A stretch of DNA of 22,117 nt from NCBI GenBank assembly GCA_963814585.1, contig CAWFDF010000001.1:1-22117 (forward strand), given 5' to 3'. Below are positions 2,076 to 22,117 of the stretch, piece after piece. Origin of the DNA: an uncultured delta proteobacterium (GTDB taxonomy: Bacteria > Myxococcota > Myxococcia > Myxococcales > Anaeromyxobacteraceae). The notes under the pieces are model-generated. The model saw only the letters and a list, made by a program, of their open reading frames with translations. It ran no database searches and was not told the DNA's origin. The stretch's first letter is position 1; every line of letters starts with the position of its first letter. A program made the translations under genes and the position numbers.

Positions 2076-3666
2076 ATGATCCTGACAGTCCTGAGCCTGG
2101 TGCTCGCACTGACGCCCCCCGACGCCGTGGTCGCCCGTGTGAACGGCGAGGCCATCACGGCGGCCTTCGTCACGACCCGGATGACCGGCACCCGCACCAG
2201 TCCCCAGGTGGCGGCCGACGACCTGATTGCCGAGGTGCTCCTCGGCGTCGAGGGGGCGAAGCTGGGCGTGAAGGCGCCGGCGACCGCAGCCCCGGCCATC
2301 GACCTGGCCCGCCGGAGCGCCGCCGTCGAGCGGTACCTCCAGGTGGTGGTCTTCCCGGGCGTGCAGGTCCCCGAGGCCGACCTCCGCGAGCGCTTCCAGC
2401 CAGCGCGGCGACCAGGTCCGGCTGCTCCTGGTGGCCCGACCGGACGAGGCGCAGGCCAGGGCCACCCTGGCGCGGATCGCCGCGGGCGCCAGCTTCGCGG
2501 ACGAGGCCGCGACCTCGGTGGACCCGACCTCCAAGGCAAAGAAGGGAGACCTGGGCTGGCTGCCGCGCTCGGCGCTCTCCGCGGGCCTGGCCAAGGAGGC
2601 CTTCGTCGCGCCCATCGGAAAGGTGCAGGGCCCGGTCCTCGCCGAGGGCGCCTGGAGCGTCTACCTGGTGCAGGACCGGCGCCTGCCGGACGACGCGGCC
2701 TACGGCCTGGTGAAGGACCGGCTCCGCGCCGACCTCGAGCCCCAGGCCCGCTCCGCCGCCGCGGAGAAGCACCGGGCGAAGCTCGTCGCCGACCTCAAGG
2801 GCCGCGTGGACCAGAAGGCCATCGCCGCCACCGGTGACGGGCTCCAGGCCACGCCCGAGCAGTCCGCCAAGGTGGTGGCCAGCGCCGGCGGCGTCACCGT
2901 CACCTACGGCCAGGTGCTCAAGGAGCTGGGGGGCGGCCACGGCGGCGCCGGTGGATCCGGTCGCGCCTCGCCGGAGGTGAAGGCCACGCTCGCCCAGGAC
3001 CTGCTGGGGCGGGCCGTGCTCGAGCAGGCCGCCATGAAGCGCTTCTCGAAGGACCCGGCGGTCCAGGCGGCTGCGGCCAGGGCCGAGCGCGCCGCGGTCG
3101 CCGTCGCCTACGCCGAGAAGCTGCGCCGCGAGGCTCCCGGGCCCAGCACGGCCGAGGTGGAGGGACGGTACGAGGCCCGCAAGCGCGACTTCATGACCCC
3201 CGGCGGCCGGCGCTGCTTCCAGCTGGTCGCGCCGACGGAGGACGGCGTGAAGAAGCTGGCGGCCCGGGTCGCCGCGGGAGAGGACTTCGCCAAGGTGGCC
3301 GCCGACAGCTCGGATCGCCGCAGCGCCGCCAAGGGCGGCGAGGTCGGCTTCATCACCGACGACGAGATCGCGCGGGTCGAGCGGCCGGATGGCGAGCCGG
3401 CGCTGGCGGCCGCGGTGCTGGGCACGCCGGCCGGGCAGCTGAGCAAGCCCATCAGGACCGCCGCCGGCTACCGGGTGATGCGCTGCGAGGCCCACGTCCC
3501 GGCCAAGGGGGCCACGCTGGACGAGGTGCGCCACCGGATCACCATGGAGCTGAAGGGCGAACGCTCCGTCGCTGCGGTCCGCCAGCGGGCCGCGGCGCTG
3601 CGGGAGAAGGCCACCGTCCAGGTCGACGAGGCCGCGCTCACCGCCATGGTCCCTCCCAAGAAGTGA
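2076..3666 (+). CDS. Periplasmic PrsA/SurA-type chaperone with two parvulin (PpiC) domains; one frameshift near 2400; OscH-like
   Basis: Signal-like MILTVLSLVLAL, then VVARVNGEAIT. After the shift: GASFADEAATSVDPTSKAKKGDLGWL and GEDFAKVAADSSDRRSAAKGGEVGFI...GQLSKPIRTAAGY, ending in LREKATVQVD. Confidence 0.85.
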
Positions 3667-3667
3667 G

Positions 3668-3705
3668 GCTGGGTGATCTCGCCCATGGCTGGGGGATTTG
3701 CCGCT
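3668..3705. promoter_or_regulatory. Putative tandem activator (bEBP) binding sites
   Basis: Palindrome TGGGTGATCTCGCCCA (3670-3685) and a degenerate copy TGGGGGATTTGCCGCT 20 bp later. Same motif and spacing as at 8171 and 8191. Confidence 0.5.
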
Positions 3706-3756
3706 ATCCTCACCGTTGCCGGTCGGCCAACCACCTGATAGGGCTGGCCATGTCGG

Positions 3757-3772
3757 TGGCACCACGAATGCT
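3757..3772 (+). promoter_or_regulatory. Sigma54 (-24/-12) promoter of the 42-heme cytochrome
   Basis: TGGCACCACGAATGCT: exact TGGCAC, GG-N10-GC spacing, intergenic and correctly oriented. Confidence 0.7.
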
Positions 3773-3868
3773 GTGAAGCGAACGGCTCCATCCTTCTCCG
3801 ACCCCGCTGGCGGCTCTCCCCCCCGGGAGCCGCGTCCGCGGCCGCGAGCACCAGGACCCGAGGAACGA

Positions 3869-6800
3869 ATGCCCGACCGCTCTCCCTTGATGCTCCACGC
3901 TGGTCCGAAGCCCGGCGGGCGCGGACCCCACGGCGCCACGCTCCTCCCGCTGGCCATCCTCGCCGCGGCGGCGCTGGCCCTGGGCGGGTGCTCCACGGGC
4001 GCCGGTGCCCGCGGCGGCGGCGCCGGCGGGGGCGGGCGGAAGGTGGCCGCCAAGGAGTGCGTGGCCTGCCACGCGGCGACGCTGAAGCAGCAGGAGCGGA
4101 AGCTCACCCACAAGCCCTTCGCGGACGCCAAGGGGTGCGAGTCCTGCCACCGCCGCCACGGCATCGTCGGCGTCAACGTGCTCCAGAAGGAGGAGCCGGA
4201 GCTCTGCTTCGGCTGCCACGAGAAGCAGAAGAAGGAGTTCGGGCAGGGCGTGGTGCACGAGGCCATCCGCGGGACCGGCAAGGCCAAGTGCACCTCGTGC
4301 CACGCGGCCCACGCCTCCGACCTGCCGAGCCTGATGCGGGTCTCGACCAACGAGGCCTGCGCCACCTGCCACAAGAAGGCGCAGCTGCAGGGGGCCAAGG
4401 TCCACGCGCCGGCCGCCAAGGACTGCGGCACGTGCCACACGCCGCACGCCAGCCCCCAGAAGCGGCTGCTGGTGAAGGAGGAGAAGGCGCTCTGCGGCGG
4501 CTGCCACGAGGCGGGCGACGCCAGGATGAAGAAGGCGCACGGTGGCCTCCCGGTGGCCAGCGCCAGCTGCGTCCAGTGCCACTCGCCGCACTCCGCCGCC
4601 GCCGCCGGCGGGCTGCTGCCGAGCGTCCACGCGGTCGGCTCGGACTGCGCCGAGTGCCACACCGGCGGCTCGGACAAGGCCAAGCCCTTCGCCGTCAAGA
4701 AGGCAGCGCCGGAGCTCTGCTTCGGCTGCCACGACGCCCAGCAGGCCGACCTCAAGAAGAAGGTGGTCCACCCGCCGGCCGAGGGCTGCACCGACTGCCA
4801 CTCGCCCCATGCCGCCAAGGGGCCCAAGCTCCTCGTCCAGGGGGTCCGCGAGACCTGCGCCGGGTGCCACGAGCCCATCGCCGCGAAGCTGGCGACCAGG
4901 CCCCACGCTCCGGCCCGGGACGGAAAGTGCGCGTCCTGCCACGCGCCGCACGGCTCGGACAACAAGCGGCTCCTGGTCGCCACCGGCCCGGCGCTCTGCA
5001 CCGGCTGCCACCAGGCCGCCGCCGAGTGGCTCAAGGCCAAGGTGGTCCACGCCCCGGCCCGGTCCGGCGACTGCGGCGGCTGCCACGATCCGCACGGCTC
5101 GCCCAATGGCAAGCTGCTGGTCAAGGGGGCCGGCGAGCTGTGCTACGGCTGCCACCAGAAGCAGAAGGAGGCCTTCACCGGCGACAACCTCCACCGCCCG
5201 GTCCGCGAGGGCCAGTGCGCCGCCTGCCACCAGCCGCACGGCTCGGCGCAGGCCAAGCTCCTGAACGTCCCGGCGGCGCGGCTCTGCGACGGCTGCCACG
5301 CCTTCGACAAGCGCTACGAGAAGACCAAGCTCCACGCCCCGCTCGCCAGCGGCGGCTGCTCCGCCTGCCATGACCCCCACGTGGCCGGCCAGCCCAAGCT
5401 CCTCAAGTCCCCGGTCGCCAGCCTCTGCGCCGGGTGCCACGAGAAGGTGCCCAAGGGGCTCGACGCCAAGGGGATCGTCTCCTCCCACCGGCCGGTCCGC
5501 AACGGCGAGTGCACCGCCTGCCACGAGCCACACGGCTCGAAGGACAAGGCCTTCCTGAAGAAGGGGCGGCTGGAGGTCTGCGGCGACTGCCACGGCGAGC
5601 TGGTGAAGCGGCTGGCGCGCCGGGACGCCCCCAGCCACGCTCCGGCCCGGGACGGCGACTGCGACGCCTGCCACGCCGGTCATGCCTCGGCCCAGCCGTC
5701 GCTGCTGCTGAAGGCCGGGAAGCAGCTCTGCCTCGAGTGCCACGACGCCAAGGACGCGGCGCTGGTCAAGACCCACTCCGGCTACGACATCGACGGGAGC
5801 TCCTGCCTCGGCTGCCACGATCCCCACTACGGCGACCGGAAGGGGCTGATCCGCCGCGTCGGCCACTCGCCCTTCGTCAACCGGGACTGTGGCTCCTGCC
5901 ACGTCCAGCCCAAGCCCGGCGGCAGCGAGCCGAAGACCGTGGCCTCCGGCCGCGCGCTCTGCGAGGTCTGCCACGGCGACACCCGCACCAGCTTCGCCAA
6001 GAAGTTCGTCCACACCGCCGTGAAGCAGGAGCGCTGCGGTGCCTGCCACGCCCCGCACGCCTCCTCCTCCGACAAGCTCCTCTCCAGGACCGGCGGGGCC
6101 CTCTGCTACACCTGCCACGACCCCAAGGCCTTCCAGAAGAAGGAGATGCACGCCCCGGTCAAGGCCGGGGAGTGCCTCAAGTGCCACTATCCGCACGCCT
6201 CCGACGCCAAGGGCGTGCTGGTCAGGACCGGCAATGAGCTCTGCCTGGGCTGCCACGCCGAGCAGAAGCGCGAGCTGGCGTCGAAGCACGTCCACGCCGC
6301 CGTCACCGGCGGGGCCTGCACCGACTGCCACGACCCGCACGGCTCTCCATACCCGGCCATGCTGGTCTCGTCGCGCGAGAAGCTCTGCCTCAAGTGCCAC
6401 GACACCAAGGCCCCGGCCATCCAGGCGGCGCACCAGCGCTTCCCCCTGGCCGGGGTGGACTGCGCCTCCTGCCACAACCCGCACGGCTCCAGCCAGGCCG
6501 GGCTGATCCGCTCCAACAAGCACCAGGTGTTCGGCGCCTGCGCCCGCTGCCACGCCACCACCGGCGCCAAGCCCCAGGCGCTCCTGGCCCAGAGCCCCGC
6601 CCTCTGCTTCCGCTGCCACGGCGACAAGAAGACCGAGGTCTCCGCCAAGACCGGCGTGCACGCCGCCGCCCAGGGCGACTGCACCGACTGCCACACGCCC
6701 CACGCCTCCAACGAGAAGGGGCTGGTCAAGGGCAACAAGGAGCGAGCCGTCTGCCTCGGCTGCCACGATGGGATCAAGGGCGACCTGGAGCGGTCCAAGT

Positions 6801-7141
6801 CGATCCACCCGGTCAAGGCTGCCGGCGGCCGCTGCACCGCCTGCCACCGCCCCCACTCCTCGAGCCAGGTCCGCCTGCTCAGCCAGCCCGCCGGCGAGCT
6901 CTGCCAGACCTGCCACAAGACGCACGCCCAGTTCACCCACCCCATCGGCAAGGGCGTGACCGACCCGAACACCGGCAAGGACATGAACTGCCTCTCCTGC
7001 CACGGTCCCCACGGGACCAGCCAGGATCACATCCTGCTCGGCAACCCGGCCCGCGGGCTCTGCATCCGCTGCCACGACGCCGACTCCGAGGACATGAAGG
7101 GGATGCGCAAGCCGAAGCCCGCAGGGCCAGCGGGAGGCTAG
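3869..7141 (+). CDS. Giant multiheme cytochrome c lipoprotein, 42 CxxCH motifs (paired-CxxCH repeats), about 1090 aa
   Basis: Intact ORF; 42 CxxCH counted by hand. Hydrophobic signal ends in lipobox LGG-C (Cys at 3989-3991), followed by a Gly-rich tether. Start at ATG 3869 (SD GAGG at 3860-3863); ATG 3890 is an alternative. Confidence 0.95.
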   Translation: MPDRSPLMLHAGPKPGGRGPHGATLLPLAILAAAALALGGCSTGAGARGGGAGGGGRKVAAKECVACHAATLKQQERKLTHKPFADAKGCESCHRRHGIVGVNVLQKEEPELCFGCHEKQKKEFGQGVVHEAIRGTGKAKCTSCHAAHASDLPSLMRVSTNEACATCHKKAQLQGAKVHAPAAKDCGTCHTPHASPQKRLLVKEEKALCGGCHEAGDARMKKAHGGLPVASASCVQCHSPHSAAAAGGLLPSVHAVGSDCAECHTGGSDKAKPFAVKKAAPELCFGCHDAQQADLKKKVVHPPAEGCTDCHSPHAAKGPKLLVQGVRETCAGCHEPIAAKLATRPHAPARDGKCASCHAPHGSDNKRLLVATGPALCTGCHQAAAEWLKAKVVHAPARSGDCGGCHDPHGSPNGKLLVKGAGELCYGCHQKQKEAFTGDNLHRPVREGQCAACHQPHGSAQAKLLNVPAARLCDGCHAFDKRYEKTKLHAPLASGGCSACHDPHVAGQPKLLKSPVASLCAGCHEKVPKGLDAKGIVSSHRPVRNGECTACHEPHGSKDKAFLKKGRLEVCGDCHGELVKRLARRDAPSHAPARDGDCDACHAGHASAQPSLLLKAGKQLCLECHDAKDAALVKTHSGYDIDGSSCLGCHDPHYGDRKGLIRRVGHSPFVNRDCGSCHVQPKPGGSEPKTVASGRALCEVCHGDTRTSFAKKFVHTAVKQERCGACHAPHASSSDKLLSRTGGALCYTCHDPKAFQKKEMHAPVKAGECLKCHYPHASDAKGVLVRTGNELCLGCHAEQKRELASKHVHAAVTGGACTDCHDPHGSPYPAMLVSSREKLCLKCHDTKAPAIQAAHQRFPLAGVDCASCHNPHGSSQAGLIRSNKHQVFGACARCHATTGAKPQALLAQSPALCFRCHGDKKTEVSAKTGVHAAAQGDCTDCHTPHASNEKGLVKGNKERAVCLGCHDGIKGDLERSKSIHPVKAAGGRCTACHRPHSSSQVRLLSQPAGELCQTCHKTHAQFTHPIGKGVTDPNTGKDMNCLSCHGPHGTSQDHILLGNPARGLCIRCHDADSEDMKGMRKPKPAGPAGG

Positions 7142-7143
7142 GC

Positions 7144-8124
7144 GTGCGGCTCGGCGCGGTCGGCTCCGTCGGCCTCATCCTGGCGGCGCTGGCGGCGCCC
7201 GGCCGAGCCAGCGACCTGGAGGCCGGCTCGCCGCTGGCGGTGGAGGAGCTGGCCCCGGTCGCCATCACCTACGGCCACTTCTACGAGGGCGCCTTCCAGG
7301 GGCCGACCGGCGTGACCTGCGACGCCCGCAGCGGCGAGATGTACGTGGCCGACGCGGGCCGCGGGCTGATCGGCATCTTCGACCGGAAGGGCGCCCCGCT
7401 CTTCACCTTCGGCGACCCCGGCCGGCTCCGGGTCCCGGTCAAGGCCGTGGTCGATGGCCAGGGCCGGATTGTCGTCCTCGACTCCGCCGACCGGCGGCGG
7501 CTGCGGCTCTACAGCTATCGCGGCGAGTTCCGCACCTTCCTGGCGCTGGAGGGGCTGGACGCCAAGCCCAACCTCGCCATCACGGCCATCGCCGTGGACG
7601 CCCTGGGGAACCTGCTGGTCGGCGACTCGGGCCACGGCGAGGTGCTGGTGTTCGACCCGAAGGGGCGGCTCCTGTTCCGCTTCGGCAACAAGGGCAAGGG
7701 GCCGAACGAGTTCGACTCGATCATGGGGATTGCCGCCACCGCCGACCGGATCTTCGTCTCGGACAGCGCGGGGATCGGCGTTCAGGTCTTCGACCGGCGC
7801 GGCCGCTACCTGCGCGGCTGGGGACGCCACGAGGCCGGGCGCGAGAACGTCTCCTTCCCGCACGGCATCAGCGTGGACGGGAAGGGCCGGATCGCGCTGG
7901 TGGACTCGCTGCGCCACGAGATCAAGCTCTACGCGCCGGACGGCAAGATGATCGGCCAGTACGGCGGCGCCGGCCAGCGCCCGGGCGAGGTCCTCTACCC
8001 CGCCGACGCCTCCTTCGACGGCGAGGGGCGGCTCTGCCTGGCGGACCGCGGCAACGACCGCGTGCAGGTCCTCCAGCCGCGCGAGCCGCCGCCGCCCAGG
8101 CCGGAGCCGAAGCCGGCGCCGTGA
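7144..8124 (+). CDS. Secreted NHL-repeat six-bladed beta-propeller protein, 326 aa
   Basis: GTG 7144 with SD GGGAGG and a signal peptide. Repeats FQGPTGVTCD..MYVAD, AIAVDALGNLLVGDS, FPHGISVDGKGRIALVDS and YPADASFDGEGRLCLADRGNDRVQV. This is the 3' part of ORF 6394..8124. Confidence 0.9.
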   Translation: MRLGAVGSVGLILAALAAPGRASDLEAGSPLAVEELAPVAITYGHFYEGAFQGPTGVTCDARSGEMYVADAGRGLIGIFDRKGAPLFTFGDPGRLRVPVKAVVDGQGRIVVLDSADRRRLRLYSYRGEFRTFLALEGLDAKPNLAITAIAVDALGNLLVGDSGHGEVLVFDPKGRLLFRFGNKGKGPNEFDSIMGIAATADRIFVSDSAGIGVQVFDRRGRYLRGWGRHEAGRENVSFPHGISVDGKGRIALVDSLRHEIKLYAPDGKMIGQYGGAGQRPGEVLYPADASFDGEGRLCLADRGNDRVQVLQPREPPPPRPEPKPAP

Positions 8125-8168
8125 TCCACGGCGGGCCCCTGGATCGGGGCACCCAGGTCAATTTTCCT

Positions 8169-8239
8169 GCTGGGCCAAAACACCCGGTGCTGGGGCACAA
8201 GACCCGCCCGGTGGCCAGCCCTGTGGGCCAAAGCACCCG
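8169..8239. promoter_or_regulatory. Three imperfect palindromic repeats, putative bEBP enhancer sites
   Basis: TGGGCCAAAACACCCG (8171), TGGGGCACAAGACCCG (8191) and TGGGCCAAAGCACCCG (8224), lying 87-140 bp upstream of the sigma54 element. Confidence 0.6.
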
Positions 8240-8310
8240 AAGCGCTGCCGGTGTGCGGATCTGTCGTCGGATTTCTCCAGCGATTCCAGGTCGGTCCGGG
8301 TCGGTCCGGT

Positions 8311-8326
8311 TGGCACTCCCGATGCT
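8311..8326 (+). promoter_or_regulatory. Sigma54 (-24/-12) promoter of the omcS-like operon
   Basis: TGGCACTCCCGATGCT with GG-N10-GC spacing, inside a 334-bp intergenic region. Confidence 0.75.
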
Positions 8327-8458
8327 AAGGACCCACATCACGAACTCACCAGATGGTCGACGTGGACCGGCGGAGCTCGCCGGGCAGCAGAGCAGGCAGG
8401 GGAAGTCCGTCGCAGCCAATCGCGCAGTGAACCAGACGCCAACCGGAGTCCAACCACC

Positions 8459-9595
8459 ATGAAGAAGCTCACCTTCATCGCCCTCGCCGCCTTCGCCAGC
8501 ACGGCGCTCGCCGGCGAGTTCCACACCTACACCACGCTGGTGTGCAGCGACTGCCACACCATGCACGCCAGCCGGACCCACAGCTACGGGACCGACTCCC
8601 TCAACGCCAACGACACCGTCGTCTTCGGCGCTGGCGACACCGGCGGCCACGAGGCCCTCCTGCTCGGCGCCGACGTCAACAAGACCTGCCTGACCTGCCA
8701 CAACGGCGCGCGCGGCCCGGACGTCTTCGGCCTGAACGCCGGCCTCTTCTCCCCGAACAGCCGCTCCGCCGGCGCCCTGAACTCCACAGCCGGACATCGC
8801 CCAGGCGGCGGCTACATGCCGTACATGGGCCACTCGCTCGGCTCGACCGCGATGCCCCCGGCTACATCGCCGCCAACTGGAGCGCCACCTACCGGTACCC
8901 GGGCCAGGACCTGCAGCCATCCAGGGTTCCCGCTGCCACACGGCCCACGGCCGCAGGAACCTTCTCGCGTAACCTGCGCGACCGCGGCTCCGACGCCGCC
9001 ATACACAAGCCCCGACTGCGTGACATCATGCCCGGCCGGCAGCTGACCCTCAACTACGGCTACGACGTCAACATGTTCGGCAACGACTACCAGTTCCGAC
9101 AGCATCTTCTACACGTCGGCCACCGGCTCGACGCTCCGCCTGAACAAGATGACCGCCTTCTGCGGCATGTGCCACGGCAACTACCACGACGACGCCGTCG
9201 GCGGCGTCGCCGGACGACTACTTCAAGCGTCACCCGACCGACCAGGTCACCCTCACCCCGCGCCGCGCTCTTCACGGCCGAGGCGGTCGAGGCCACCAAC
9301 GTGTCGGTCAAGCTGACCTACATCCGGGCGCGGGCGTCACCCGCGGCACCGAGCCCGGCACCATCAACTTCCAGGCTAATCCCACCGCGACGGCGACCGT
9401 CGGCTGCCTCACCTGCCACAAGGCCCACGGCAACCTGAACTCCTTCGGCCTGTTCTTCCCCGGCAACTCGGTCGGGCCGACGGGCGCCGAGTCCACCTCG
9501 ACGGCAACCACGAGCAGGGCCCGGGCAACTCGATCCGGAACCTCTGCAACACCTGCCACGGCCAGGGCCGCACGCCCGTGACGGTAATCCCGTAA
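8459..9595 (+). CDS. omcS: OmcS-family hexaheme outer-surface cytochrome c (candidate nanowire subunit); several indels at 8855-9540
   Basis: Signal peptide MKKLTFIALAAFASTALA, then FH-x6-CSDCHTMH, LL..TCLTCH, SAG/GHSLG, a garbled xRCHTAHG..RNL (about 8931), MTAFCGMCHGNYH, KRHPT, VGCLTCHKAHG and RNLCNTCH. Order and context of motifs are those of Geobacter OmcS. Stop TAA 9593-9595. The symbol denotes family, not proven orthology. Confidence 0.8.
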
Positions 9596-9612
9596 CCAGC
9601 TGAAGCAGTCCG

Positions 9613-9642
9613 GCGTGGGGAGGGCGAGAGCCCTCGCCACGC
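9613..9642 (+). terminator. GC-rich stem-loop after the omcS-like gene (weak terminator or mRNA 3' stabiliser)
   Basis: GCGTGG-G-GAGGGC-[GAGA]-GCCCTC-G-CCACGC: 12-bp stem with a GNRA loop and only a weak U tract (TGCATTTC). Confidence 0.6.
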
Positions 9643-9670
9643 TGCATTTCGTGGCATACTGCGAGGCGAC

Positions 9671-10590
9671 GTGTCGAAAGGGACGCCCATCAGGCCCGGA
9701 AGAGCGCACACCGCGGGCTGGCCGCACGCCGCGCTGCTGCTCATGGCGCCGCTCCTCCTCGGGGGCTCCTGGCACACCTCCAATCGGCTCGTCTGCAGCG
9801 ACTGCCACACCATGCACAACAGCGCCGCCGGCCAGGCGATGCGCTACGACCTCGACGACACCCCGGTCCAGTACCTGCTCCGCAGCGCCAGCCCCGACCC
9901 TACGCTCTGCCTGCACTGCCACGGCTCGATGCCGACGCAGGGCGCCCCCCGGGGTGGCGCTGAGGAGGGCGCGGTGCCCCCCTTCGACTCGGCCGCCGGG
10001 TTCTTCACCACCGCCGGCGGGGGCCAGCCGGTCACCGGCTGGCCACGTCGTCGGCGTGGCGCCGACCCAGGACCCGGCCGAGTACTTCTCCAGCGCGGCC
10101 ATGACGCTCGGCTGCCTGGTCCGCGACCAGCACGGCAACGCCCTCTACCGGAACCTCCGCCAGCCATTGAGGACCGGGTCAGCGCCTCGCCGCTGGTCAC
10201 CGAGCGGCGGGTGCTGGCCAGCCAGGCCCAGGCCGGCCCCGGTCTACGGCACAGCCGACGTCCCTACAGTCGGGCTTCGCCAAGGTGGTGCCTCAACTGC
10301 CACGACCAGTACAGCCGCTACCGCCGCGGTCGACATCCTCGACCCGCCCCGACACCTCTACTACCTCTACTACGCCGCCAACGCCCTCTCGGCCACGGGG
10401 ACGCCGCTGCCGCGGCCGCGCGTCCAGGCGCCCTCGTCGAGGCCGTCCCGGATCCGACCAACCAGCTCTTCTGCCTCTCCTGCCACAAGGCCCACGGCAG
10501 CGGGGCCCCTGCGTGGTCTACCCCGACCCCGCCGACACCAGCTCGCTGTGCGCCCGCTGCCACGTGCCGCCGGCGGCGGTGGCGCCATGA
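9671..10590 (+). CDS. Second, compact OmcS-family hexaheme cytochrome c, about 305 aa; multiple indels
   Basis: GTG with SD GAGG and a hydrophobic signal. WH-x6-CSDCHTMHNS, YLL..LCLHCH, AAGFF/GH, garbled LGCLVRDQHGN..YRNL, WCLNCH, LFCLSCHKAHGS and SLCARCH. TGA 10588-10590 overlaps the next ATG. Confidence 0.75.
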
Positions 10591-12011
10591 GCCGGGTCCT
10601 GCCCGGCACGCGCGGCCTGCTCCGCGGCCTCTCGGCCGCGGCGCTGCTGGCGGCGCTGCCGCTCGTCGCGACGGCCGGCCCCGAAGCCTTCCGCACCTCC
10701 CGCCACGCCGACCGGTGAGCGGGCCGTTCCGCGATCGCAAGTACCGGCCCGGGACCTGCCTGCAGTGCCACGGCAGCGGCGGCGCCTCGACGATGGACCG
10801 TCCAACGGGATCGCGCATCGCCGCCAACGACGACCAGCTCTGCCTGACCTGCCAGGCGGCGGCCCGCGGCTCGTTCCCCGAGGTACGCCTCACTGGTGAC
10901 CCGCTCGACGCACAGCCAGTCGCCGCGGGTGGTCTGGCCCGGGCCGGTGCCCAGGGCTCGCCCGCGGGGGGGCGGGGGACGCTGCCTCAACTGCCACGAC
11001 CCGCACGGCCGGGTCGATGCGCTCAGGCCCCATCCCGGACATGCTGGTGGCCCGCGGCGACGACCTGTGCCTCGCCTGCCACGGCGGGGTGGGGGCGGCG
11101 CCGACATCGCGGCCACCTCGACGGGATCAGCCGGCACCCGCGCGCCACCGGCGGGGCGGTGAAGGGCGGCGCCTGCGGGGACGGTTGCTGGATTGCCGCG
11201 ACCCGCACCTGGCTCGGCGCGACACCACCGGCGCCCTGGGCGGGACCGTCGGCCTGGTGGACGGCGTCCGCCGGGTCAGGCTGATCGACGGCGCGGCCGT
11301 CCCTCCGCGGCCACCCCGGGTGGGACCGGAGCCGCTCCCCGACCCCGGAGTACGAGGTCTGCTTCCGCTGCCACGCCGGCGCGGCGGGCGACTCCGCCAC
11401 CGTGCTGGCGGCGCCGACGGGGGTCACGCTGGGCCACCGTCCGGTGCCGGGGCGGTCCCGGCGGGGGGCGCGATCACCGCGGTGGCGCGCGGCGAGGTCG
11501 CTCGGGCTTCAACCCGGCCAACGCCTCCTACCACCCGGTGAGGCCCCGGGGCGGGACGGCGCCATCGACCCGGCCGCGTTCGCCGGTGGCTGGCGAGCCG
11601 GGCGGATGGTCAGCTCAGCGACTGCCACGGCTCCGGCAACGGCCGGGTCCGGGGCCCACGGCTCGAGCTTCCCGAAGCTGCTGAAGAGGCGGTATCCGGT
11701 CGCGGCCCAGGCCGCCCAGCAGGAGCCGTCCGACCTGCTTCGACTGCCGTGCCTGGAGCACCTACGCGGCCGCCGGCGCCGGGCTGGCCGCCACGGTCAG
11801 CCGGTACGGCGGCCACACCTCGCACGCCGGCCAGGGCCTCTCCTGCCAGGCCTGCCACGAGCCCGCGGGAGCCCGAAGCTCCCCTCGCTGGGCGCTCCGC
11901 ACGCCGGGCCTGGTCACCTACCAGCGCGACGCCTCGGGCGGCACCTGCACCGTCAGCTGCCACGCCAAGACCCCGCCCGCCGCCAGCTACCGGCTGGCCT
12001 ACCCCCGGTAG
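10587..12011 (+). CDS. Secreted multiheme cytochrome c, about 10 heme motifs, heavily frameshifted
   Basis: Signal peptide MSRVLPG...ALPLVATA. Intact motifs across frames: CLQCH, CLNCHDPH, CLACH, CFRCH, CQACH and terminal CTVSCH (Cx3CH). Four damaged ones: CLTCQ, DCRDPH, SDCHG, FDCR. Stop TAG 12009-12011. Confidence 0.75.
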
Positions 12012-12026
12012 GCCAGCACCGCCTCG

Positions 12027-14182
12027 ATGGAATCCCAGGCCCAACCCCGCGCCCGCGCAACCCTGGTCGCCTGGCTGCTCGCGCTCGCCCCGGGCCTGGC
12101 GTCGGCGGCCGTGGACGGACTGGGGGCCACCGCCACGCTCCAGCTCAACCGGTTCGAGACCGCCGACACCGCCTCCGACGGGGTGAACCAGCGCTACTAC
12201 CTGTTCTTCGAGAACCCGCTCTCGGGGCTGCTCAAGTACCGGGCCAAGCTCGGCTACATCGAGGATCACGCCAACGTCTTCACCGAGGGGCCGCGCCTCG
12301 GACAGCGGGCCGTCCAGCCGGGGCTCCAGCTCGACTACGGGCGCGACTGGCTGTCGCTGAACGGCCTCTACGAGTACCAGTGGATCGAGCGGTTCTCCCA
12401 GGTCGCCGAGTCGGTGGCCGGCACGAGCCACCGGGGCCCCACCACGCTGGGCATCCAGGCCACCGAGGACCTCCGCTTCGGCGCCCGCTTCGAGTGGCAC
12501 GGGCAGCGGGAGGCGAGCACCGACGTGCGGCTCGACCGCTACCGGGCCGACGTCAGCGGCACCTGGCAGCGCGGGGTCAACTCCGTGTCGCTCGGCCCGG
12601 TCCTCGACGTCTACAAGAACTCGGCCAACGGCTACCTGCGGACCACCGTCTCCCCGACCCTCAAGGCGAACTATGGCGACACGTGGCTCGGCGGGAAGCT
12701 CAACGTCTACCTGAACGGCACCGCCGCCTACAGCCAAATCAACGAGTCGGCCGGCGGGGCCCTACCGGTCAGCGAGCCGCGCGAGATCGAGCCGCTCGCC
12801 GCCTCCTGGGTGGTGAGCGGCACGACCGCCGACACCACCGCCACCCCCTCCACCTCGGTCCCCGCGCTGATCGACGGGAACTACGTCGCCAGCACCGGCA
12901 TCTCGCTCGGGCCCGACGGCGTCTCGTCCCAGAACCTGGCGTTCGACATGGGCCGGGTGATCACCCTCGACGAGTTCCCGATCTACCTCCGCGACCCCGG
13001 CGGCAACCCCCTCCAGGAGGGCGGCCCTGTGACCTGGACGGCCTACACCAGCCTCGACGGGCTGCGGTGGACCCCCACCAGCTCGGCCGGGGCCAGGTTC
13101 GACCTGGGGCTGAGCGCCTCGATCATCGCCTTCTCGGCGACCGAGGCGCGCCACTTCAAGGTGGTCAACTTCGGGGTCAACCGGCTCCCCACCCTGGTGA
13201 CCGAGATGGAGATCTACGAGCACCGGGTCATCCTGCCCAACGAGACCCGGACCTCCTGGACCGCCACCCAGGTGGTGGGCGGGGGCGTGACGCTGCAGAT
13301 CGCGGAGAAGCTCGCGGCCACGGTGACCGGAAACATGGGGCCGACCGCAGCGGCCGGCGGGGCGCGCGCCGTACGACTCCATCACCGACAACTACCTGGT
13401 CGGCCTGACCTCCGGCCCCTGGGCCGGCTTCCCTCTCGGGCTCGCTACTGCCCACAACGACTTCATGAGGACCCTCTCCCCCACGCTCCGCGGGGACGTC
13501 GGCTCGCTGGGGGTGGGCTCACGCCGAACGAGGTCCTGTCGACCGGGCTGGTGGCCTCGGCCCAGCGGCAGGACTACGGCGAGTACCGGCTCGAATCGCA
13601 GGGGCTGTCGCTCACCGCCGCCTGAACCCCCATCAGGAAGCTCAACCTGGGCGCCTACGCCGCGGTGAACTGGTGCGGTCAACTACCCGTACGGGCTGGA
13701 GCAGACCGTCATGTCGGCCGGCGGCAGCGCCGTCATCTTCCTGCACCGGACCTTCGACGTCGCGCTGGCCGCCACGGCGCAGAAGATCCTCTCGGGGGAG
13801 GCGAACCTGATTCCGGAGGGGGTCCATCGTGCCGCCGGCCATCCAGCGCAGCTACTCGGCGACGCTCCGCTACCACCCGAACTCCCAGCTCGATCTGAGC
13901 GCGCAGTTCGGGTATACCGAGACCGGGGCGGCCGATGGCCCGGTCCAGAACTACCGGGTGAGCTGGCTCCCGTTCCCGAACGGCGCCTTCAGCCTCATCC
14001 TCAACTACCAGCAGAACGTCGAGCCCATCTCCGGCTCGAGCCTGAGCCGTCTCTCCGTCATCCCGGGGTGGAACATCAGCAAGCACCTCTCACTCACGGC
14101 CTCGCTCTTCCGCAGTGGGGGTCGGGCCCGTTCGCCGTCCCGCTCGAGACGCTACTACCTGGCGCTGACCTTCTACCTATGA
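12027..14182 (+). CDS. Putative outer-membrane beta-barrel protein with inserted discoidin (F5/8C)-like domain; indels at 13340-13850 and near 14120
   Basis: Signal peptide ending ASA-A. Alternating amphipathic strands (LKYRAKLGY, GLQLDYG, LSLNGLYEY, RYRADVSGTW, YSATLRY, LDLSAQFGY) and terminal strand YYLALTFYL*. Stop overlaps the next ATG. Joins ORFs 12027..13625 and 13829..14182. Confidence 0.7.
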
Positions 14183-14763
14183 GCCCCACTGCGCAGCCAC
14201 GCTCTCGACTCCCCGGCGGACTGGCCGGCTGGCCCCTCCTGCTGGCGCTGGCCCTGGGATGCGCGGCGCCGAGCCCGTACGTCAGCGAGAACGCCGACTT
14301 CTCGCTGATCCGGTCCGTGGCCATCCTCCCGTTCGACGACGCCTCGGGGGAGAAGATGGGGGCAGAGCGGATCCAGCGGATCTTCATGACCGAGCTGCTG
14401 GCCCTCGGGGTCTTCGATCCGGTCGAGCCCGGGCAGGTGGTCCGGGCGGTCCGCACCGAGCGGATCGACCCCGCCTCCTTCACGCCCGACGACATCAAGA
14501 AGCTGGGGAAGCTGCTGGGTGTCCAGGGCGTCTTCGTCGGCTCGATCATCGAGTACTCCGAGGGGAGGTCCGCCTCGCAGTCGGCGCAGGTGACGCTGCA
14601 AATCCGGCTGCTCGACGTGGAGTCGGGCAAGACGGTCTGGTCCACCAGCCGGAGCGGGACCGGCGCGACGGTGACCGGACGGCTCTTCGGGATGGGGTCG
14701 CTCACCGCCTCCGAGGTCGCGCGGCAGCTGATCCGCGAGGAGCTCGAGCGCCTCGTCCGGTGA
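14179..14763 (+). CDS. PelC/CsgG/GNA1162-fold lipoprotein, 194 aa (OscF-like)
   Basis: Lipobox LALG-C. Motifs SVAILPFDD, FDPVEPGQV, LGKLLGVQGVFVGSIIEY and VTLQIRLLDVESGKTVWS. ATGA-coupled to the barrel gene. Confidence 0.85.
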   Translation: MSPTAQPRSRLPGGLAGWPLLLALALGCAAPSPYVSENADFSLIRSVAILPFDDASGEKMGAERIQRIFMTELLALGVFDPVEPGQVVRAVRTERIDPASFTPDDIKKLGKLLGVQGVFVGSIIEYSEGRSASQSAQVTLQIRLLDVESGKTVWSTSRSGTGATVTGRLFGMGSLTASEVARQLIREELERLVR

Positions 14764-14766
14764 ACC

Positions 14767-15831
14767 ATGAGCCTCCGGGCGGCCGTCGCACTCCTTCTCC
14801 TCGCCGCGCCCCCGGCCTCCCCGGCCGCCGAGGGGCGGCTGGTGCTGCTCCCGTTCGACGGCCAGGTCGGCCCCGCCTTCCGCCAGGCGGTGGCCCAGAC
14901 CGTCATGGTCGCCCTGGCCCGGCGGGGCTACACGGTGGTGGGCGGCGAGGTGGCGGAGCGCTTCCTGGAGGAGCGCCGCATCCGCTACCTCGACTCCCTG
15001 ACCGAGGCCGACATCCGCGCGCTCAGCGGGGAGTTCCACGCCGACGGCGTGGTGCTGGGGGCCTTCATCGCCATCCCCGACGAGCAGTCGCCGGAGGCCG
15101 CCCTCTCGGCGCGGCTGATCCGGGCGGACGGACGGATGGCGTCGACCGCCACCTCCGGCCTGTCGTCGCGCGGCGAGCAGCGGCGCCCCTACGCCGAGGG
15201 TGACACCAGGGCCACCCTGCGCCCGGTCGAGCAGCTCACCGCGGTCGCCGCCCGGCTGTTCCAGGGGTTCCCCGAGAACGGTGCGCCCCTGCCCGTGCGG
15301 GTCGCCGGCTACACGGTCGGCTCGTCGCCCAGGACCTACCGGGCCCCCGGCTTCTTCCGGGAGCGCCGGCGCGTCTGCCTGCTCCCGTTCTCCAACGTCA
15401 CGGCCACGCAGGCCGCCACCCGCGCGGTGGAGGCGATCTTCGCCCGGGCGCTCGGGGAGCGGAACCAGTTCAAGGTGGTCGAGCCGGCCGAGCTTCGCCG
15501 CGCCTTCGTGGAGGAGGAGATCTGGAGCCCGCGCTGGCTCACCCTGGACCACTACCGCCGGCTCAGCGCCCGGGTCGGCGGCTGCGCCTTCCTGAGCGGG
15601 GACATCCTGACCTACGGTATTGTGAGCGACTCGGTGGGCGGGACCACGCCCGCCGTGGAGATCTACGTCAGCCTGGTCGAGCCGCCGGCCGGCCGGGTCG
15701 TCTGGTCGGCGCTGCACGTGCGGCGCGGCCAGGAGTACGAGCACCTGCTCGGCCTGGGCGTGCTCCAGAGCAGGTTCGAGGTGGGCGAACAGGTGGTGCA
15801 GGAGCTGGTCAGGGGGCTCTACGCCCCGTGA
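14767..15831 (+). CDS. Secreted protein with two tandem PelC/CsgG-like domains, 354 aa (OscG-like)
   Basis: Signal peptide. Domain 1: LVLLPFD...ADGVVLG...LSARLIRADGR. Domain 2: VCLLPFSN...FKVVEP...LSGDILTY...VSLVEPPAGRVVWS. Confidence 0.8.
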   Translation: MSLRAAVALLLLAAPPASPAAEGRLVLLPFDGQVGPAFRQAVAQTVMVALARRGYTVVGGEVAERFLEERRIRYLDSLTEADIRALSGEFHADGVVLGAFIAIPDEQSPEAALSARLIRADGRMASTATSGLSSRGEQRRPYAEGDTRATLRPVEQLTAVAARLFQGFPENGAPLPVRVAGYTVGSSPRTYRAPGFFRERRRVCLLPFSNVTATQAATRAVEAIFARALGERNQFKVVEPAELRRAFVEEEIWSPRWLTLDHYRRLSARVGGCAFLSGDILTYGIVSDSVGGTTPAVEIYVSLVEPPAGRVVWSALHVRRGQEYEHLLGLGVLQSRFEVGEQVVQELVRGLYAP

Positions 15832-15859
15832 AAAGGTCGTGAGACCGAAGGGAAGGCAC

Positions 15860-17709
15860 ATGAAGAAGCTGCTCCTCATCGTCGCGGCGGCCGGGCTGTG
15901 CTCGGGCTGCGCCGCGCCGCGCTACCTCGCCAAGGTCAACGGCGAGGAGATCACCGGCACCGACATGCGCCGCGAGTTCGGCAAGCGCCATCGGTCGATG
16001 GAGAAGTACCTGGCGACCGAGGCCGAGGTGCGAAGGGTGCTGGACTCGGTCATCGACCGGCGGCTCTTCCTCCAGGAGGCCCGCCGCGCCGGCCTCCAGG
16101 ACAATGCCGGCCGTCCGCGAGGCCATCAACGGTGAGCGCGAGCGCCGACTCGTCGAGACCCTGGTCCGGCGCGAGGTCGAGCTTCCGGCCCAGCCGACCG
16201 AGGCGGAGGTGGCGGCGGCCTACAAGCTGATGGAGCAGGGAGGGCTGGCGCGGGAGGTGGTCACGGCCACCCGGGCCGAGGCGGAGGAGGTGCGGATCCG
16301 GGCCCTCGCCGGCGACGACTTCGAGGCGCTGGCGCGCGAGCGCTCCATCGCCCGGAGCCGGCTCAACGGCGGGCTGCTGGTGCTCCGCTTCGGCGACGCC
16401 GAGGTGGCGCGAGAGGAGGTCGGGCGCGCCCTGCGGGAGGGGGACATCTCCCCGGTGTTCGAGCTGAAGCAAGGCTGGGCGGTCCTCAAGCTGGAGGAGC
16501 GCAAGCTCATCGTCCCGCCGGACCTGCCGGTGGTGAAGGAGAAGCTCGCGGCCATCCTCAAGCGCCGCAAGGTGGAGGTGCTGGACCGGGAGTTCATCGC
16601 GGCCATCCGGGCCAAGTACGCCGCCCAGGTGGCGCCGTGCGACTTCTCGCTGGCCTCCCTGGAGAAGGCGCGCGCCACCCCGATCACCACCGTCTGCGCC
16701 ACCTGGACCGGCGGCTCCTACACGCTGTCCGAGCTGGCGGCCAGGCTGCCGCTGGACCGGCTCCGCGCCGCCCCGCCGGAGCGATACGACGCCGAGGTGG
16801 AGATGAGGATCGGCGACGTGGTGGCCGAGCGGCTGCTCCTGGCCGAGGCCATCGCCCGCGGCCTCGACAAGGACCCGGAGGTGGTGGAGCCGGTCCAGTC
16901 GCTCGAGGAGAAGCTCCTGGTCGAGCTCTACCTGGAGCGCTACGTCACGCTCGAGGTGACGGTCAGCGACGCCGAGGTGGAGGCCGGCTACCTGGCGCAG
17001 AAGTCCGAGCTGATCGTCCCCGAGTCACGCCTCCTCTCGCAGATCGAGGTGGCCAGCGCCGAGACGGCGGCCGCCGCCCAGCGGCGGCTCGGGGAGGGGG
17101 AACGCTTCGAGGAGGTCGCCAGCGAGCTCACCACCAACGTCGAGCAGGCCAAGCGGGGTGGCCTGATCGGCTGGAAGACCAAGGCGGAGCTCACCGAGCC
17201 CTTCGCCTCGGTGTTCGAGGCGCGGCGGGGCGTGGTGGTGGGCCCGGTCGCGGCCGGGGCCACTTCTACCTCGTCAAGGTCCTGGAGATCCGGCCGGAGT
17301 CGTCGCTGGAGCGACCCGAGGCGGAGGCCAAGGTCCGGGAGGCGCTGCTGACCGGCCGCCGCTTCGACCGCTTCGAGCGCTTCCGCGACCAGCTCCGGAA
17401 GGCCTCCGAGATCGAGCTGAGCGACGCGGGCATCAAGCGCTACCTGGAGGAGAACCCGGCCCCGGTGGTGAACCCTCCCCCCCGCCGACCGCCGGGAAGG
17501 GTGGTCACGCCGGCATGGGTTCGATCCCGGCCGACCTGCCGCCGGGCGGCATGCCCGGGGGGATGCCGGGTGGCCACGGTGGGCGCACGGCGGTTCCGCC
17601 GAGCCCGACGACGCCCAAGCCGGGCGCCACGCCGCCGGCCGCGACGTCGCCAGGAGCTGCGCCGCCGGGCCCGACGACGCCCAGGCCAAGACGCCCTGAT
17701 CGAAGATGA
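15860..17709 (+). CDS. Second PrsA/SurA-type chaperone (likely lipoprotein) with two parvulin domains and a Pro/Gly/Met/His tail; frameshifts near 16103, 17255 and 17480
   Basis: MKKLLLIVAAAGLCSG-C, YLAKVNGEEIT, LFLQEARRAGL, GDDFEALARERS..GDISPV, GERFEEVASEL..KRGGLIGW and QLRKASEIEL. TGA 17707-17709 overlaps the next ATG. Confidence 0.8.
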
Positions 17710-19567: not shown

Positions 19568-19624
19568 TTCTGGCCCCGGCTTCCCGGCTGAAGGCCGCGA
19601 CGCCTCGGCTCTCCTCACGCCGCC

Positions 19625-21224: not shown

Positions 21225-22117
21225 TGCCCTGACCCAGGCAAGATGCCTGCTGCGAGAGTCGATCCTCTCGCTGCGGCAGGCGGCCTCGTCGGTCCGCTGC
21301 TCTCCGCTGCTCCCTCCCGGGCGCCAGCCTCGCTTCGGTCTCGGCGCTCTCGTCTGGCCGCCGCCGCCGCCTCCTGGCGCTCCTGCCCTTCTTCGCGCTG
21401 TCCCTGCTCCTCGGCTCGGTCACCCTGTGGTTCCAGTGGACCCGCGCGCTCGCCAGCACCGGAGACGCCCGCTCCGTCGCGGAGCGGCTGCTCTGGCCGG
21501 GGTGGACGGTGGCGACCTACCTGCGTCACGCCGTGCTGCCGATCGACCTGGCGCTGCTCTACCCGCCCTGGCCCGTCTCGCCCCGGACCTGGTGGTTCGC
21601 GGTGCCCACCTTCCTGGTGGCGGCGCTGCTCGCGGCGGCCTGGCGCTGGCGGTCCGGCCCGGGTCGTGGGCTCTTCGAGGCGCTCGCCTACCACGCCACC
21701 ATGGTGCTCCCGGTGTCCGGGGTGGTCCACATCGCCTTCTTCCTGTGGAGCCGGTCGCCAACCACCTGCAGTACCTGGCCCTGCCCGGACCGCTGGCGTG
21801 GGTGGCGTCGCTCCTGGCGGGGCTCCGGCCCGGGCGGTGGCGCCGCGCCGGGGCGGTCGTCATGGCCGGCGTCGCCGTGGCCATGGCGACGTCGACGCAC
21901 CTGCGAGCCCGCGCCTTCGAGGACGACTCCACGCTCTGGGCGGCGGCGGCCAGCCAGGCCCCGGACAGCCTCCACGCCAGCTGGAAGCTGGCGGCCTGGA
22001 GGGCAGCCTGTAGCGAGCCGGACCGCGTCGGGTGGGCCTGCCATTGCCCAGCAAGGCCGGCGCCAGCGCGAGGATCGGCTCTCTCCGGAGGCATCTCCTC
22101 CGGAGCGAGGCCCTAGC
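21224..22117 (+). CDS. Second TMTC-like GT-C membrane protein; N-terminal catalytic region apparently missing, 3' end unresolved
   Basis: LLPFFALSLLLGSVTLWFQ, ERLL..TVATYLRHAVLPIDLALLYP, MVLPVSG, VANHLQYLALPG and RARAFEDDSTLW. Probable start at the TGATG overlap (21224) or ATG 21242-21244. Confidence 0.65.

Follow-up and report, generated by a model that had tools for sequence, protein, structure and literature searches.

Contig C1 of the genome assembly of an uncultured delta proteobacterium of the Anaeromyxobacteraceae carries ten plus-strand genes at 2076-17699, which we consider likely to be a divergent cluster of the osc (omcS-companion) type, whose predicted task is to assemble and export an extracellular filament of OmcS-like cytochromes and to supply it with electrons. 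The window analysed here is this whole contig, 22,117 bases with about 73% guanine plus cytosine (GC), from an assembly (G000) of 18 contigs and 4.34 Mb. We show here that two of the encoded cytochromes, the hexahemes hex1 and hex2, are relatives of OmcS by sequence and fold, and that the gene set recurs in the same order across phyla, which is far more than chance would give. Five of the encoded proteins are homologous to those in the matching slots of a cluster in a complete genome of the same family. The locus is an architectural variant of the published and widespread osc system and not new in kind. A preliminary description of this DNA had placed a cytochrome-nanowire locus at 2076-17709 in a high-GC bacterium, probably outside Geobacter. 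These coordinates are accurate, every gene type that it named was found, all on the plus strand, and the host assignment agrees both with the GC content of 73% and with the nearest named homologs, which come from Anaeromyxobacter or from metagenome-assembled genomes (MAGs) of the Anaeromyxobacteraceae.

The locus, 22-24 kb in length, is present in the assembly in three divergent forms, on C1, on C6 and on C16 (10917-35037). Where a gene is broken in the window, the C16 copy served as reference sequence, and where C16 is broken, the window or C6 was used. The ten genes, in their order along the window and with the frame-breaking insertions and deletions (indels) of the window copy, are as follows.

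2076-3666, plus strand: parv1, SurA-like PpiC/parvulin with signal peptide; start mapped from the intact C6 copy; one frame-breaking private indel, near 2399
3869-7141, plus strand: 42-heme c-type cytochrome, 1090 amino acids; no frame-breaking indel, intact
7144-8124, plus strand: NHL-repeat beta-propeller, 326 amino acids, GTG start, signal peptide; no frame-breaking indel, intact
8459-9595, plus strand: hex1, long-type OmcS-family hexaheme, 375 amino acids in C16; 12 frame-breaking private indels
9671-10590, plus strand: hex2, short-type OmcS-family hexaheme, GTG start, mature protein of about 276 amino acids; 12 frame-breaking private indels
10587-12011, plus strand: cyt3, cytochrome with nine CXXCH and one CX3CH, 481 amino acids in C16, signal peptide; 17 frame-breaking indels
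12027-14182, plus strand: barrel, predicted outer-membrane beta-barrel, 719 amino acids in C16, OscE position; 6 frame-breaking indels
14179-14763, plus strand: lipo1, single-domain lipoprotein of PelC/CsgG/LpoB fold, 194 amino acids, lipobox LALGC; intact
14767-15831, plus strand: lipo2, two PelC-like domains, 354 amino acids, signal peptide, no lipobox cysteine; intact
15860-17699, plus strand: parv2, SurA-like PpiC/parvulin lipoprotein, 616 amino acids in C16, lipobox LCSGC, OscH position; 7 frame-breaking indels

The genes had been called often ATGA-coupled. This holds for two junctions, hex2/cyt3 and barrel/lipo1, which are true ATGA overlaps; the others are spacers of 2-28 nucleotides, plus two longer intergenic regions.

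The hexaheme cytochromes and the genes that accompany them

Both hexahemes carry six CXXCH motifs in their intact C16 copies, and all six are invariant in 62 of 62 aligned sequences of the hex1 family (A1) and in 30 of 30 (A2). Compared alone with the sequences of the PDB, the C16 version of hex2 matched OmcS (6ef8) with E 2.6e-9, and its window piece did so with E 1.4e-6. Hex1 alone gave no match among the PDB sequences and needed a profile. The profile of the hex1 family, built from 62 of 110 homologs, aligned to 6ef8 with E 8.7e-21, positions 24-358 falling on chain residues 1-405, and it matched the OmcE-type subunits 7tfs and 9yuq more weakly (OmcE E 4.3e-7, N-terminal part). The AlphaFold model of hex1 superimposes on 6ef8_A in VIA-align with Z 10.5 and a root mean square deviation of 4.2 over 233 residues, spanning chain residues 1-407 at about 24% identity. 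Hex1 and hex2 are paralogs of each other (27% identity, E 9e-19). The hexahemes had been expected to group with OmcS, and they do so in profile and in fold. Pfam and NCBIfam hold no OmcS- or Osc-specific model, and the window proteins matched only generic multiheme families there.

The likeness to OmcS (6ef8/6nef) extends to the six CXXCH motifs, to a mature N-terminus in which an aromatic residue and a histidine precede C-x-x-C-H-T-M-H, and to the bridging histidine; OmcS is longer, with 407 amino acids compared to about 356 in mature hex1 and about 276 in mature hex2. The CHTMH histidine (H36 in hex1, H25 in hex2) is invariant and aligns to the N-terminal CHTMH of OmcS, in which the subunit-bridging histidine is presumably His16. 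Further histidines for bis-histidine ligation are invariant, or nearly so, in the hex1 family. Published passages on OmcS describe a heme that is ligated by a histidine of the neighbouring subunit. This bridging feature probably does not separate wire-forming members of the family from paralogs that form no wire. In a tree of 113 six-heme members, hex1 belongs to a long clade (n=50, 337-439 amino acids, support 0.97) and hex2 to a short one (n=21, 276-301 amino acids, support 0.99), and 54 of 73 related loci hold at least two OmcS-family members. Judged from this tree, the long and the short clade are old and co-inherited. Hex1 is the predicted major filament subunit.

These related loci come from a hexaheme alignment scan of species-representative genomes, in which the best 80 of 231 relatives gave 73 loci with no Geobacter among them. 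They span MAGs of the Anaeromyxobacter type, Acidobacteriota, Planctomycetota, Armatimonadota, Zixibacteria, Ignavibacteria, Gemmatimonadota and others, and 30 of them have at least 8 kb on both sides. An NHL propeller is found in 60 of the 73 loci and in 27 of the 30 fully flanked ones, PelC-like genes in 44 (33 as adjacent pairs) and 23, the barrel in 32 and 15, a peptidyl-prolyl isomerase (PPIase) in 18 and 11, and a cytochrome with at least 20 hemes in 34 and 20, respectively. At least one of NHL, barrel, PelC-like gene and PPIase is present in 29 of the 30 fully flanked loci, so that the barrel and PelC/CsgG-like genes do co-occur with OmcS homologs, as had been supposed. The gene order of the window returns with near-equal offsets in L012-L017, L022, L023 and L028, Myxococcota and Acidobacteriota included. 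Within the own 4.3-Mb genome, the OmcS and barrel families are confined to the three locus copies, and the PelC-like family has six matches in these copies and two weak ones elsewhere. A lipo2 search of 40 relatives found the protein in 9 of 24 genomes of the same family and in none of 16 from other families of the order, which points to a patchy distribution.

Other lineages arrange the parts differently. In the Planctomycetota loci L021, L024 and L033, a PelC-like pair and a PPIase lie upstream of a 26-heme gene. In seven loci of Zixibacteria, Ignavibacteria and GN15 (L036, L038, L041, L044, L051, L055, L067) the order is 42-heme gene, short hexaheme, PelC-like pair, NHL, long hexaheme. These differing orders suggest that the module kept its parts through repeated rearrangement.

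Accessory proteins and their correspondence to the osc cluster

The osc cluster of Geobacter sulfurreducens comprises GSU2504-GSU2493 in the available passages of papers that cite Shen et al. (2025, Cell Chem Biol 32:239). These describe a block with the beta-propeller-like OscD, which has a role in morphology, the channel-like OscE/F/G and the folding factor OscH, and they give oscC as GSU2501 (a hexaheme), oscI as GSU2495 (26 hemes) and oscJ as GSU2494 (a further cytochrome). According to the same passages the eight-gene block GSU2500-2493 always follows a hexaheme of the GSU2501 type, for which a function is not established. OmcS homologs were reported earlier in Anaeromyxobacter dehalogenans.

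G019, a complete genome of 5.03 Mb from the same family, carries a cluster at 3612001-3650000 of its contig C1 (loci L086 and L087). Its order is hexaheme, 473-amino-acid propeller lipoprotein, barrel, two PelC-like genes, PPIase, 26-heme cytochrome, 16-heme cytochrome, two NHL genes and hexaheme. Since this order matches the published slots of GSU2501-GSU2494, we used the cluster as a bridge to the Geobacter system. We infer from the published gene order that its barrel and PelC-like slots correspond to OscE/F/G. The window barrel matches its counterpart in the matching G019 slot with E 7e-55, lipo1 with 33% identity and E 1.7e-24, lipo2 with E 1.8e-8 and parv2 with E 1e-14; the 42-heme protein matches the 26-heme cytochrome that follows the PPIase (38% identity, E 5e-114), and the window NHL protein matches the G019 propellers (E 1e-22). 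Hence, the window locus is an osc-type cluster, as the preliminary description had proposed for a divergent version: five proteins are homologous to genes in matching slots, and the propeller family is shared. A 33-heme open reading frame (ORF) was observed near the G019 cluster.

Going by the descriptions, the window holds a counterpart of every kind of protein in the osc cluster. As there, an OmcS-like hexaheme lies directly upstream of the accessory block, hex2 being followed by cyt3, barrel, lipo1, lipo2 and parv2. However, several differences in architecture exist. In the window the giant cytochrome, the propeller and an extra PPIase lie upstream of the hexahemes, and the giant cytochrome has 42 hemes, whereas that of osc has 26. 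The OscD slot after the short hexaheme holds the ten-heme cyt3, while in osc it holds a propeller; the window propeller sits upstream of hex1 and is a 326-amino-acid NHL protein, not a lipoprotein of about 473 amino acids. Finally, the window barrel carries a discoidin/CBM32-like insert. Because the osc machinery is already characterised, the locus is less new than the preliminary description supposed: the osc system was already published and is widespread, and what stays of the novelty is that the window architecture is a distinct variant. A parallel in overall logic exists in the OmcE nanowire clusters of Desulfuromonadia (mBio 2026, PMC13712944). The OmcE subunit is described there as a tetraheme with a fold different from that of the window hexahemes, and the available passages of that paper do not mention a PelC-like pair or a PPIase (PMC13712944).

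The individual accessory proteins are assigned with differing firmness. Both parvulins are real: parv1 matches Pfam Rotamase (E 2.1e-21) and has two PPIase stretches, and parv2 matches Rotamase (E 8e-17) and Rotamase_2 (E 1e-20) and carries a SurA_N domain besides its two PPIase stretches. A PPIase after the PelC-like pair, the position of parv2 and of OscH, which is reportedly a prolyl isomerase, is present in 18 of 73 loci. Outside this genome, L012 and L017 are the sole members of the 73 loci with an extra upstream PPIase at the parv1 position. Of the two chaperones that had been claimed, the extra upstream one is thus lineage-specific. The beta-propeller had been named correctly, with matches to Pfam NHL (E 9.5e-21) and to the 6-bladed propeller family DUF5128 (E 2e-13). 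For the beta-barrel the picture is mixed. A signal-peptide protein of about 720 amino acids is indeed present, and its family consensus ends in phenylalanine; its fold is less firm. Six of 22 family members match F5/8 type C, two of 22 OMP_b-brl and one of 22 BBP2, and residues 400-719 have a feature similarity of 0.93 to outer-membrane beta-barrel clusters. In the PDB the family profile found the CBM32 structure 2jd9 alone (E 0.0022), in line with a central discoidin/CBM32-like domain.

Two CsgG/PelC-fold proteins had been claimed, and this is correct, with PelC as the closer analogue. Lipo1 matches Pfam CsgG with 30.2 bits (cut-off 20.8) and LpoB with 25.7 bits (cut-off 22.3); hhalign pairs it with the C-terminal domain of the lipo2 family at a probability of 99.5%, and it matches PelC 9h80_C with E 0.019. 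The lipo2 search reached 729 cluster representatives at E up to 1e-3, while word-indexed homolog searches gave few matches and no Geobacter names. In the profile of 86 lipo2 members, the C-terminal half matches PelC (5t11, E 1.2e-13; 9h80, E 8.6e-11) and the N-terminal half GNA1162 (4hrv, E 6.7e-8), and Pfam finds GNA1162-like domains in 49, LpoB in 46 and CsgG in 29 of these members. The structural model of lipo2 has a predicted local distance difference test score (pLDDT) of 91.6 and a predicted template modelling score (pTM) of 0.88. Foldseek ranks PelC dodecamers and the PelBC transporter highest for this model (E 1.8e-9, template modelling score 0.72-0.76), compared to E 1.1e-4 for CsgG. 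A CsgG-type curli channel was considered as closest analogue and rejected on these two values and on the presence of a separate barrel gene. The PelBC exporter (9h80; PelC dodecamers 5t10/5t11) resembles the window in that the PelC/GNA1162/LpoB/CsgG-type domain occurs in lipo1 and in both halves of lipo2, and in that the lipo1 and lipo2 genes adjoin the gene of a large predicted outer-membrane protein, as PelC adjoins PelB. It differs in that the window spreads three PelC-like domains over two genes with a lipobox in lipo1 only, in that the window barrel is not detectably related to PelB, and in the predicted cargo, which is a heme protein polymer and not a polysaccharide. Complex prediction of lipo2 (residues 23-354) with lipo1 scored 0.01 against a mark of 0.32, which is evidence neither way.

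The two further multiheme cytochromes that had been announced are the 42-CXXCH protein and cyt3. The former has its 42 motifs in 21 paired modules (Paired_CXXCH_1, E 3.6e-214, 21 stretches) and a predicted lipobox LGGC. It had been named as part of an expanded version of the osc cluster. It is not an expansion special to this genome but a conserved module: orthologs of full length, all with exactly 42 CXXCH, are present in 24 of the 73 loci, with 32-71% identity over about 1024-1088 aligned residues, in Myxococcota, Acidobacteriota, Zixibacteria, Ignavibacteria, Gemmatimonadota and other phyla. Five loci have 26-heme versions of the giant cytochrome. A 42-heme cytochrome did not come up in the literature searched, though Shen et al. 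and its supplements may cover it. Cyt3 (C16:22767-24212), with its nine CXXCH and one CX3CH, also matches Paired_CXXCH_1 (E 1.2e-28) and is found by tblastn in syntenic loci with E 1e-60 to 1e-107. Its similarity to the OmcS family is a local segment of 83 columns in the region of hemes 4 and 5, with an RHP motif (hhalign probability 98.3%). On account of this local extent, membership of cyt3 in the OmcS family was rejected; either remote descent from that family or a shared heme-packing module may account for the segment.

A proposed route to the filament and the conduit alternative

What follows on the formation of filaments, the ring, the route of export and the path of electrons is our reading of the homologies, folds and synteny described above. 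The hexahemes would leave the cytoplasm by Sec and receive their hemes in the periplasm, and the SurA-like parvulins would hold them in a foldable state. Hex1, with a predicted sigma-54-like promoter of its own and a conserved hairpin after the gene, would be the subunit made in large amounts and would polymerise via the conserved CHTMH histidine by ligating a heme of the neighbouring subunit. A PelC-like ring beneath the barrel, as in PelBC, would form the exit and anchor of the filament. Electrons would reach the base of the filament through the periplasm via the 42-heme lipoprotein and the ten-heme cytochrome. We further put forward, tentatively and as one possibility among others, that the 42-heme lipoprotein may act as a fixed-length wire that spans the periplasm from inner-membrane respiration into the base of an OmcS-type filament held in a PelBC-like channel of barrel and PelC-like ring; here the long hexaheme would polymerise and the short one would serve as base or adaptor. 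If true, this would be a second widespread architecture of nanowire machinery, distinct from the 26-heme Geobacter type.

The features of the window beyond the ten genes, regulatory and downstream, are the following.

3757-3772, plus strand: predicted sigma-54-type -24/-12-like element TGGCAC-N5-ATGCT, 97 nucleotides upstream of the start of the 42-heme gene
8311-8326, plus strand: predicted sigma-54-type -24/-12-like element TGGCACTCCCGATGCT, 133 nucleotides upstream of the hex1 ATG
9596-9670, plus strand: GC-rich hairpin directly after the hex1 stop, predicted terminator or attenuator
17706-21213, plus strand: two membrane proteins (a multi-pass protein with tetratricopeptide repeats (TPR) and a weakly LIC_10190-like one), 83 private indel events

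The elements were compared with the consensus TGGCAC-N5-TTGCW (GG-N10-GC). That before the 42-heme gene has one mismatch and is kept in C16 and C6; upstream regions of 42-heme genes hold a sigma-54-like site in 4 of 37 cases versus 1 of 37 on the control strand, a weak difference. The element before hex1 matches 10 of 11 consensus positions and is identical in C1, C16 and C6 despite their divergence of 6-12%, and sites with at least 9 of 11 matches occur in 10 of 72 hex1 upstream regions versus none of 72 on the opposite strand. However, the motif is not enriched window-wide (4 found, 6.5 expected), and none of the roughly 25 sigma-54 activator genes of the genome lies on C1, C6 or C16, which leaves sigma-54 control a prediction. 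Of the control that had been claimed, the conserved -24/-12-like motif stands, but an activator gene on the contig is missing. The hairpin after hex1 folds in its C16 version with -48.4 kcal/mol (z -4.4; none of 200 shuffles folds as well). A hairpin is found at this position in all 9 sequences examined, with differing stems and in several cases a T-run behind; a simple terminator scan did not flag the one after hex1. In other fibres the major subunit is highly expressed relative to the downstream genes. The hairpin would fit such a high expression of hex1.

Several points weigh against the filament reading. For the architecture of the window it is a prediction from the genes. Six of the ten window genes (parv1, hex1, hex2, cyt3, barrel and parv2) are frame-broken, and this copy would be dead if the breaks are real. 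The scan that gave the 73 loci, with hex2 as query family, is biased to closer relatives by its restriction to the best 80 of 231, and the co-occurrence profiles were iterated and built from those same loci. The link from the window to the Geobacter osc cluster runs via G019 and the descriptions in other papers, not via a direct comparison of proteins. The hex1 model has low confidence (pLDDT 62.7, pTM 0.69), and Foldseek places OmcS as its top match with E 0.25 only; as hemes are absent from the model, we think that a moderate confidence is to be expected. The barrel fold is predicted from weak family matches and from feature similarity. In the published passages available, OmcS is the only one of four G. 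sulfurreducens hexaheme paralogs that is known to polymerise, hence membership in the family does not prove wire formation.

This last point also favours the main rival, a porin-cytochrome conduit without a filament in the style of MtrCAB or of the Geobacter Pcc/Ext systems, in which the barrel would work together with the ten-heme and 42-heme cytochromes and the hexahemes would be monomeric proteins of the periplasm or the surface. Cyt3 and the 42-heme protein have sub-threshold matches to decaheme families of the DmsE/MtrA type, and a chain of the Mtr complex is the second-best VIA-align match of the hex1 model, with Z 4.8. We nevertheless regard a conduit of this kind as unlikely. To our knowledge, neither a PelC-like ring pair nor SurA-like PPIases are parts of Mtr- or Pcc-type conduits. 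Here they are the conserved partners, and such proteins are linked to folding and secretion of OmcS filaments in passages of papers citing Shen et al. Moreover, the subunit-bridging histidine of OmcS is invariant in the family, and the hairpin behind hex1 suits a structural subunit made in many copies.

Locus copies, flanking genes and implications

The state of the window copy bears on how far its breaks can be taken at face value. Window positions 890-21354 align to 13068-33649 of C16, a 110-kb contig, with 93.6% identity and 309 gaps, and the window aligns to the entire 23.6-kb contig C6 with 87.4% identity and 351 gaps. In the three-way alignment, C16 and C6 differ by 9.8% substitutions and 32 indel events, while C1 differs from either of them by 168 indel events. 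Private to C1 are 154 events, 144 of them frame-breaking, compared to 16 private to C16 and 17 to C6. Most of the C1 events span 1-2 nucleotides, and they are concentrated in two stretches, 8-12 kb with 49 of them and 17-21 kb with 94. The preliminary description had called the locus complete, which with these events and six broken genes does not apply to the window copy. On C16 hex1, hex2, cyt3, barrel, lipo2 and parv2 are intact, and the 42-heme gene and parv1 are broken. Substitutions among the three versions affect 5.7-12% of sites and are somewhat more frequent at third codon positions, and from this pattern they look genuine. The lipo2 frame is uninterrupted in each of the three copies, with 95% and 82% amino-acid identity, which indicates that three divergent forms of the locus share the bin, be they strain variants or paralogs.

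The same substitutions and the open lipo2 copies would suit a truly decayed, pseudogenised paralog in the window, with C16 as the working locus, C6 possibly working and C1 dead. This seems improbable in view of the number, size and clustering of the C1 indels relative to C16 and C6. In hex1 the window copy has 16 indels against 52 substitutions, a ratio that we judge to be far above that of natural decay and to point to assembly or polishing error or a muddled haplotype. In addition, C1 and C6 are short whole contigs that align to part of C16 without unique flanks, which fits alternative haplotypes or poorly polished long-read contigs. The window is an error-rich or strain-variant copy, and C16 is the better representation of the locus. 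As the window is a poor copy, the C16 version is preferable for expression or modelling work, and a three-version assembly of this kind would inflate gene counts for the genome.

Downstream of parv2, the two membrane proteins at 17706-21213 had been taken for adjacent glycosylation genes. This did not hold up: no glycosyltransferase or sugar-pathway family was detected in them, their matches being to TPR families (E 1e-14), and the first of the two genes is kept in only 2 of the 73 loci. The second protein matches LIC_10190_fam with 76 bits, below the cut-off of 100. The conserved cluster probably does not include these two genes. In the available passages on OmcE clusters (PMC13712944), a GT39 glycosyltransferase and TPR genes often lie downstream of them, and in this light a role in glycosylation is still conceivable. 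The TPR gene, the CBM32/discoidin domain of the barrel, which resembles carbohydrate-binding domains, and the structural matches of lipo2 to PelC and the PelBC exopolysaccharide transporter might together suggest that barrel, PelC-like and TPR genes form a module for export of exopolysaccharide or another non-cytochrome cargo that merely adjoins the cytochromes, but this is very improbable, given that the PelC-like and barrel families stand beside OmcS-family genes in many phyla, usually in the same order, that they occur essentially nowhere else in the own genome, and that the sugar-related families are lacking and the TPR gene is rarely kept.

On the other side of the locus, a minus-strand gene fragment at 2-814 matches DUF2304 (E 1.7e-7); it is the sole clear minus-strand gene of the window, is unrelated to the cluster and marks its upstream boundary. 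Between it and parv1, at 736-2012, lies a frameshifted gene with weak matches to fn3 (fibronectin-III-like) repeats and a sub-threshold NCBIfam match to the repeat region of exoglucanase CbhB. C16 and C6 are each about 1.3 kb longer than the window in this region, which suggests variation in repeat copy number. At the far end, 21225-21354 is a dispersed repeat of about 130-150 bp with about 25 other sites on at least ten contigs (77-84% identity, both strands). It has no significant fold (z -1.5) and no Rfam match; an Rfam scan of the whole window gave no match either. C6 ends just before this repeat and C16 carries about 750 extra bases beside it, and the repeat may be an element of the MITE (miniature inverted-repeat transposable element) or REP (repetitive extragenic palindromic) kind that breaks assemblies. 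Elsewhere in the genome, an ORF at G000:C14:170276-179632 on the minus strand has 58 CXXCH in 3118 amino acids from stop to stop, and 46 ORFs have at least four CXXCH. This ORF and the number of multiheme ORFs indicate a cytochrome-rich lifestyle, likely with extracellular electron transfer.

Assembly, export, anchoring and charging of nanowires are still called largely unresolved in review passages. Against this background, the loci compared here indicate that the OmcS-type subunit keeps a stable set of companions from phylum to phylum: a propeller, a barrel, a PelC-like pair, a PPIase and a giant cytochrome. At least two arrangements of this set exist, the 26-heme order of Geobacter and a 42-heme order with a ten-heme cytochrome. 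With the PelC ring of a polysaccharide exporter as the closest analogue of the small accessory proteins, the set also offers a concrete and testable model of export. For the Anaeromyxobacteraceae, our findings place candidate nanowire production in soil bacteria of this type. A complete genome of the family has a related cluster, and its strain, G019, would be a good experimental entry point if it is cultivable.

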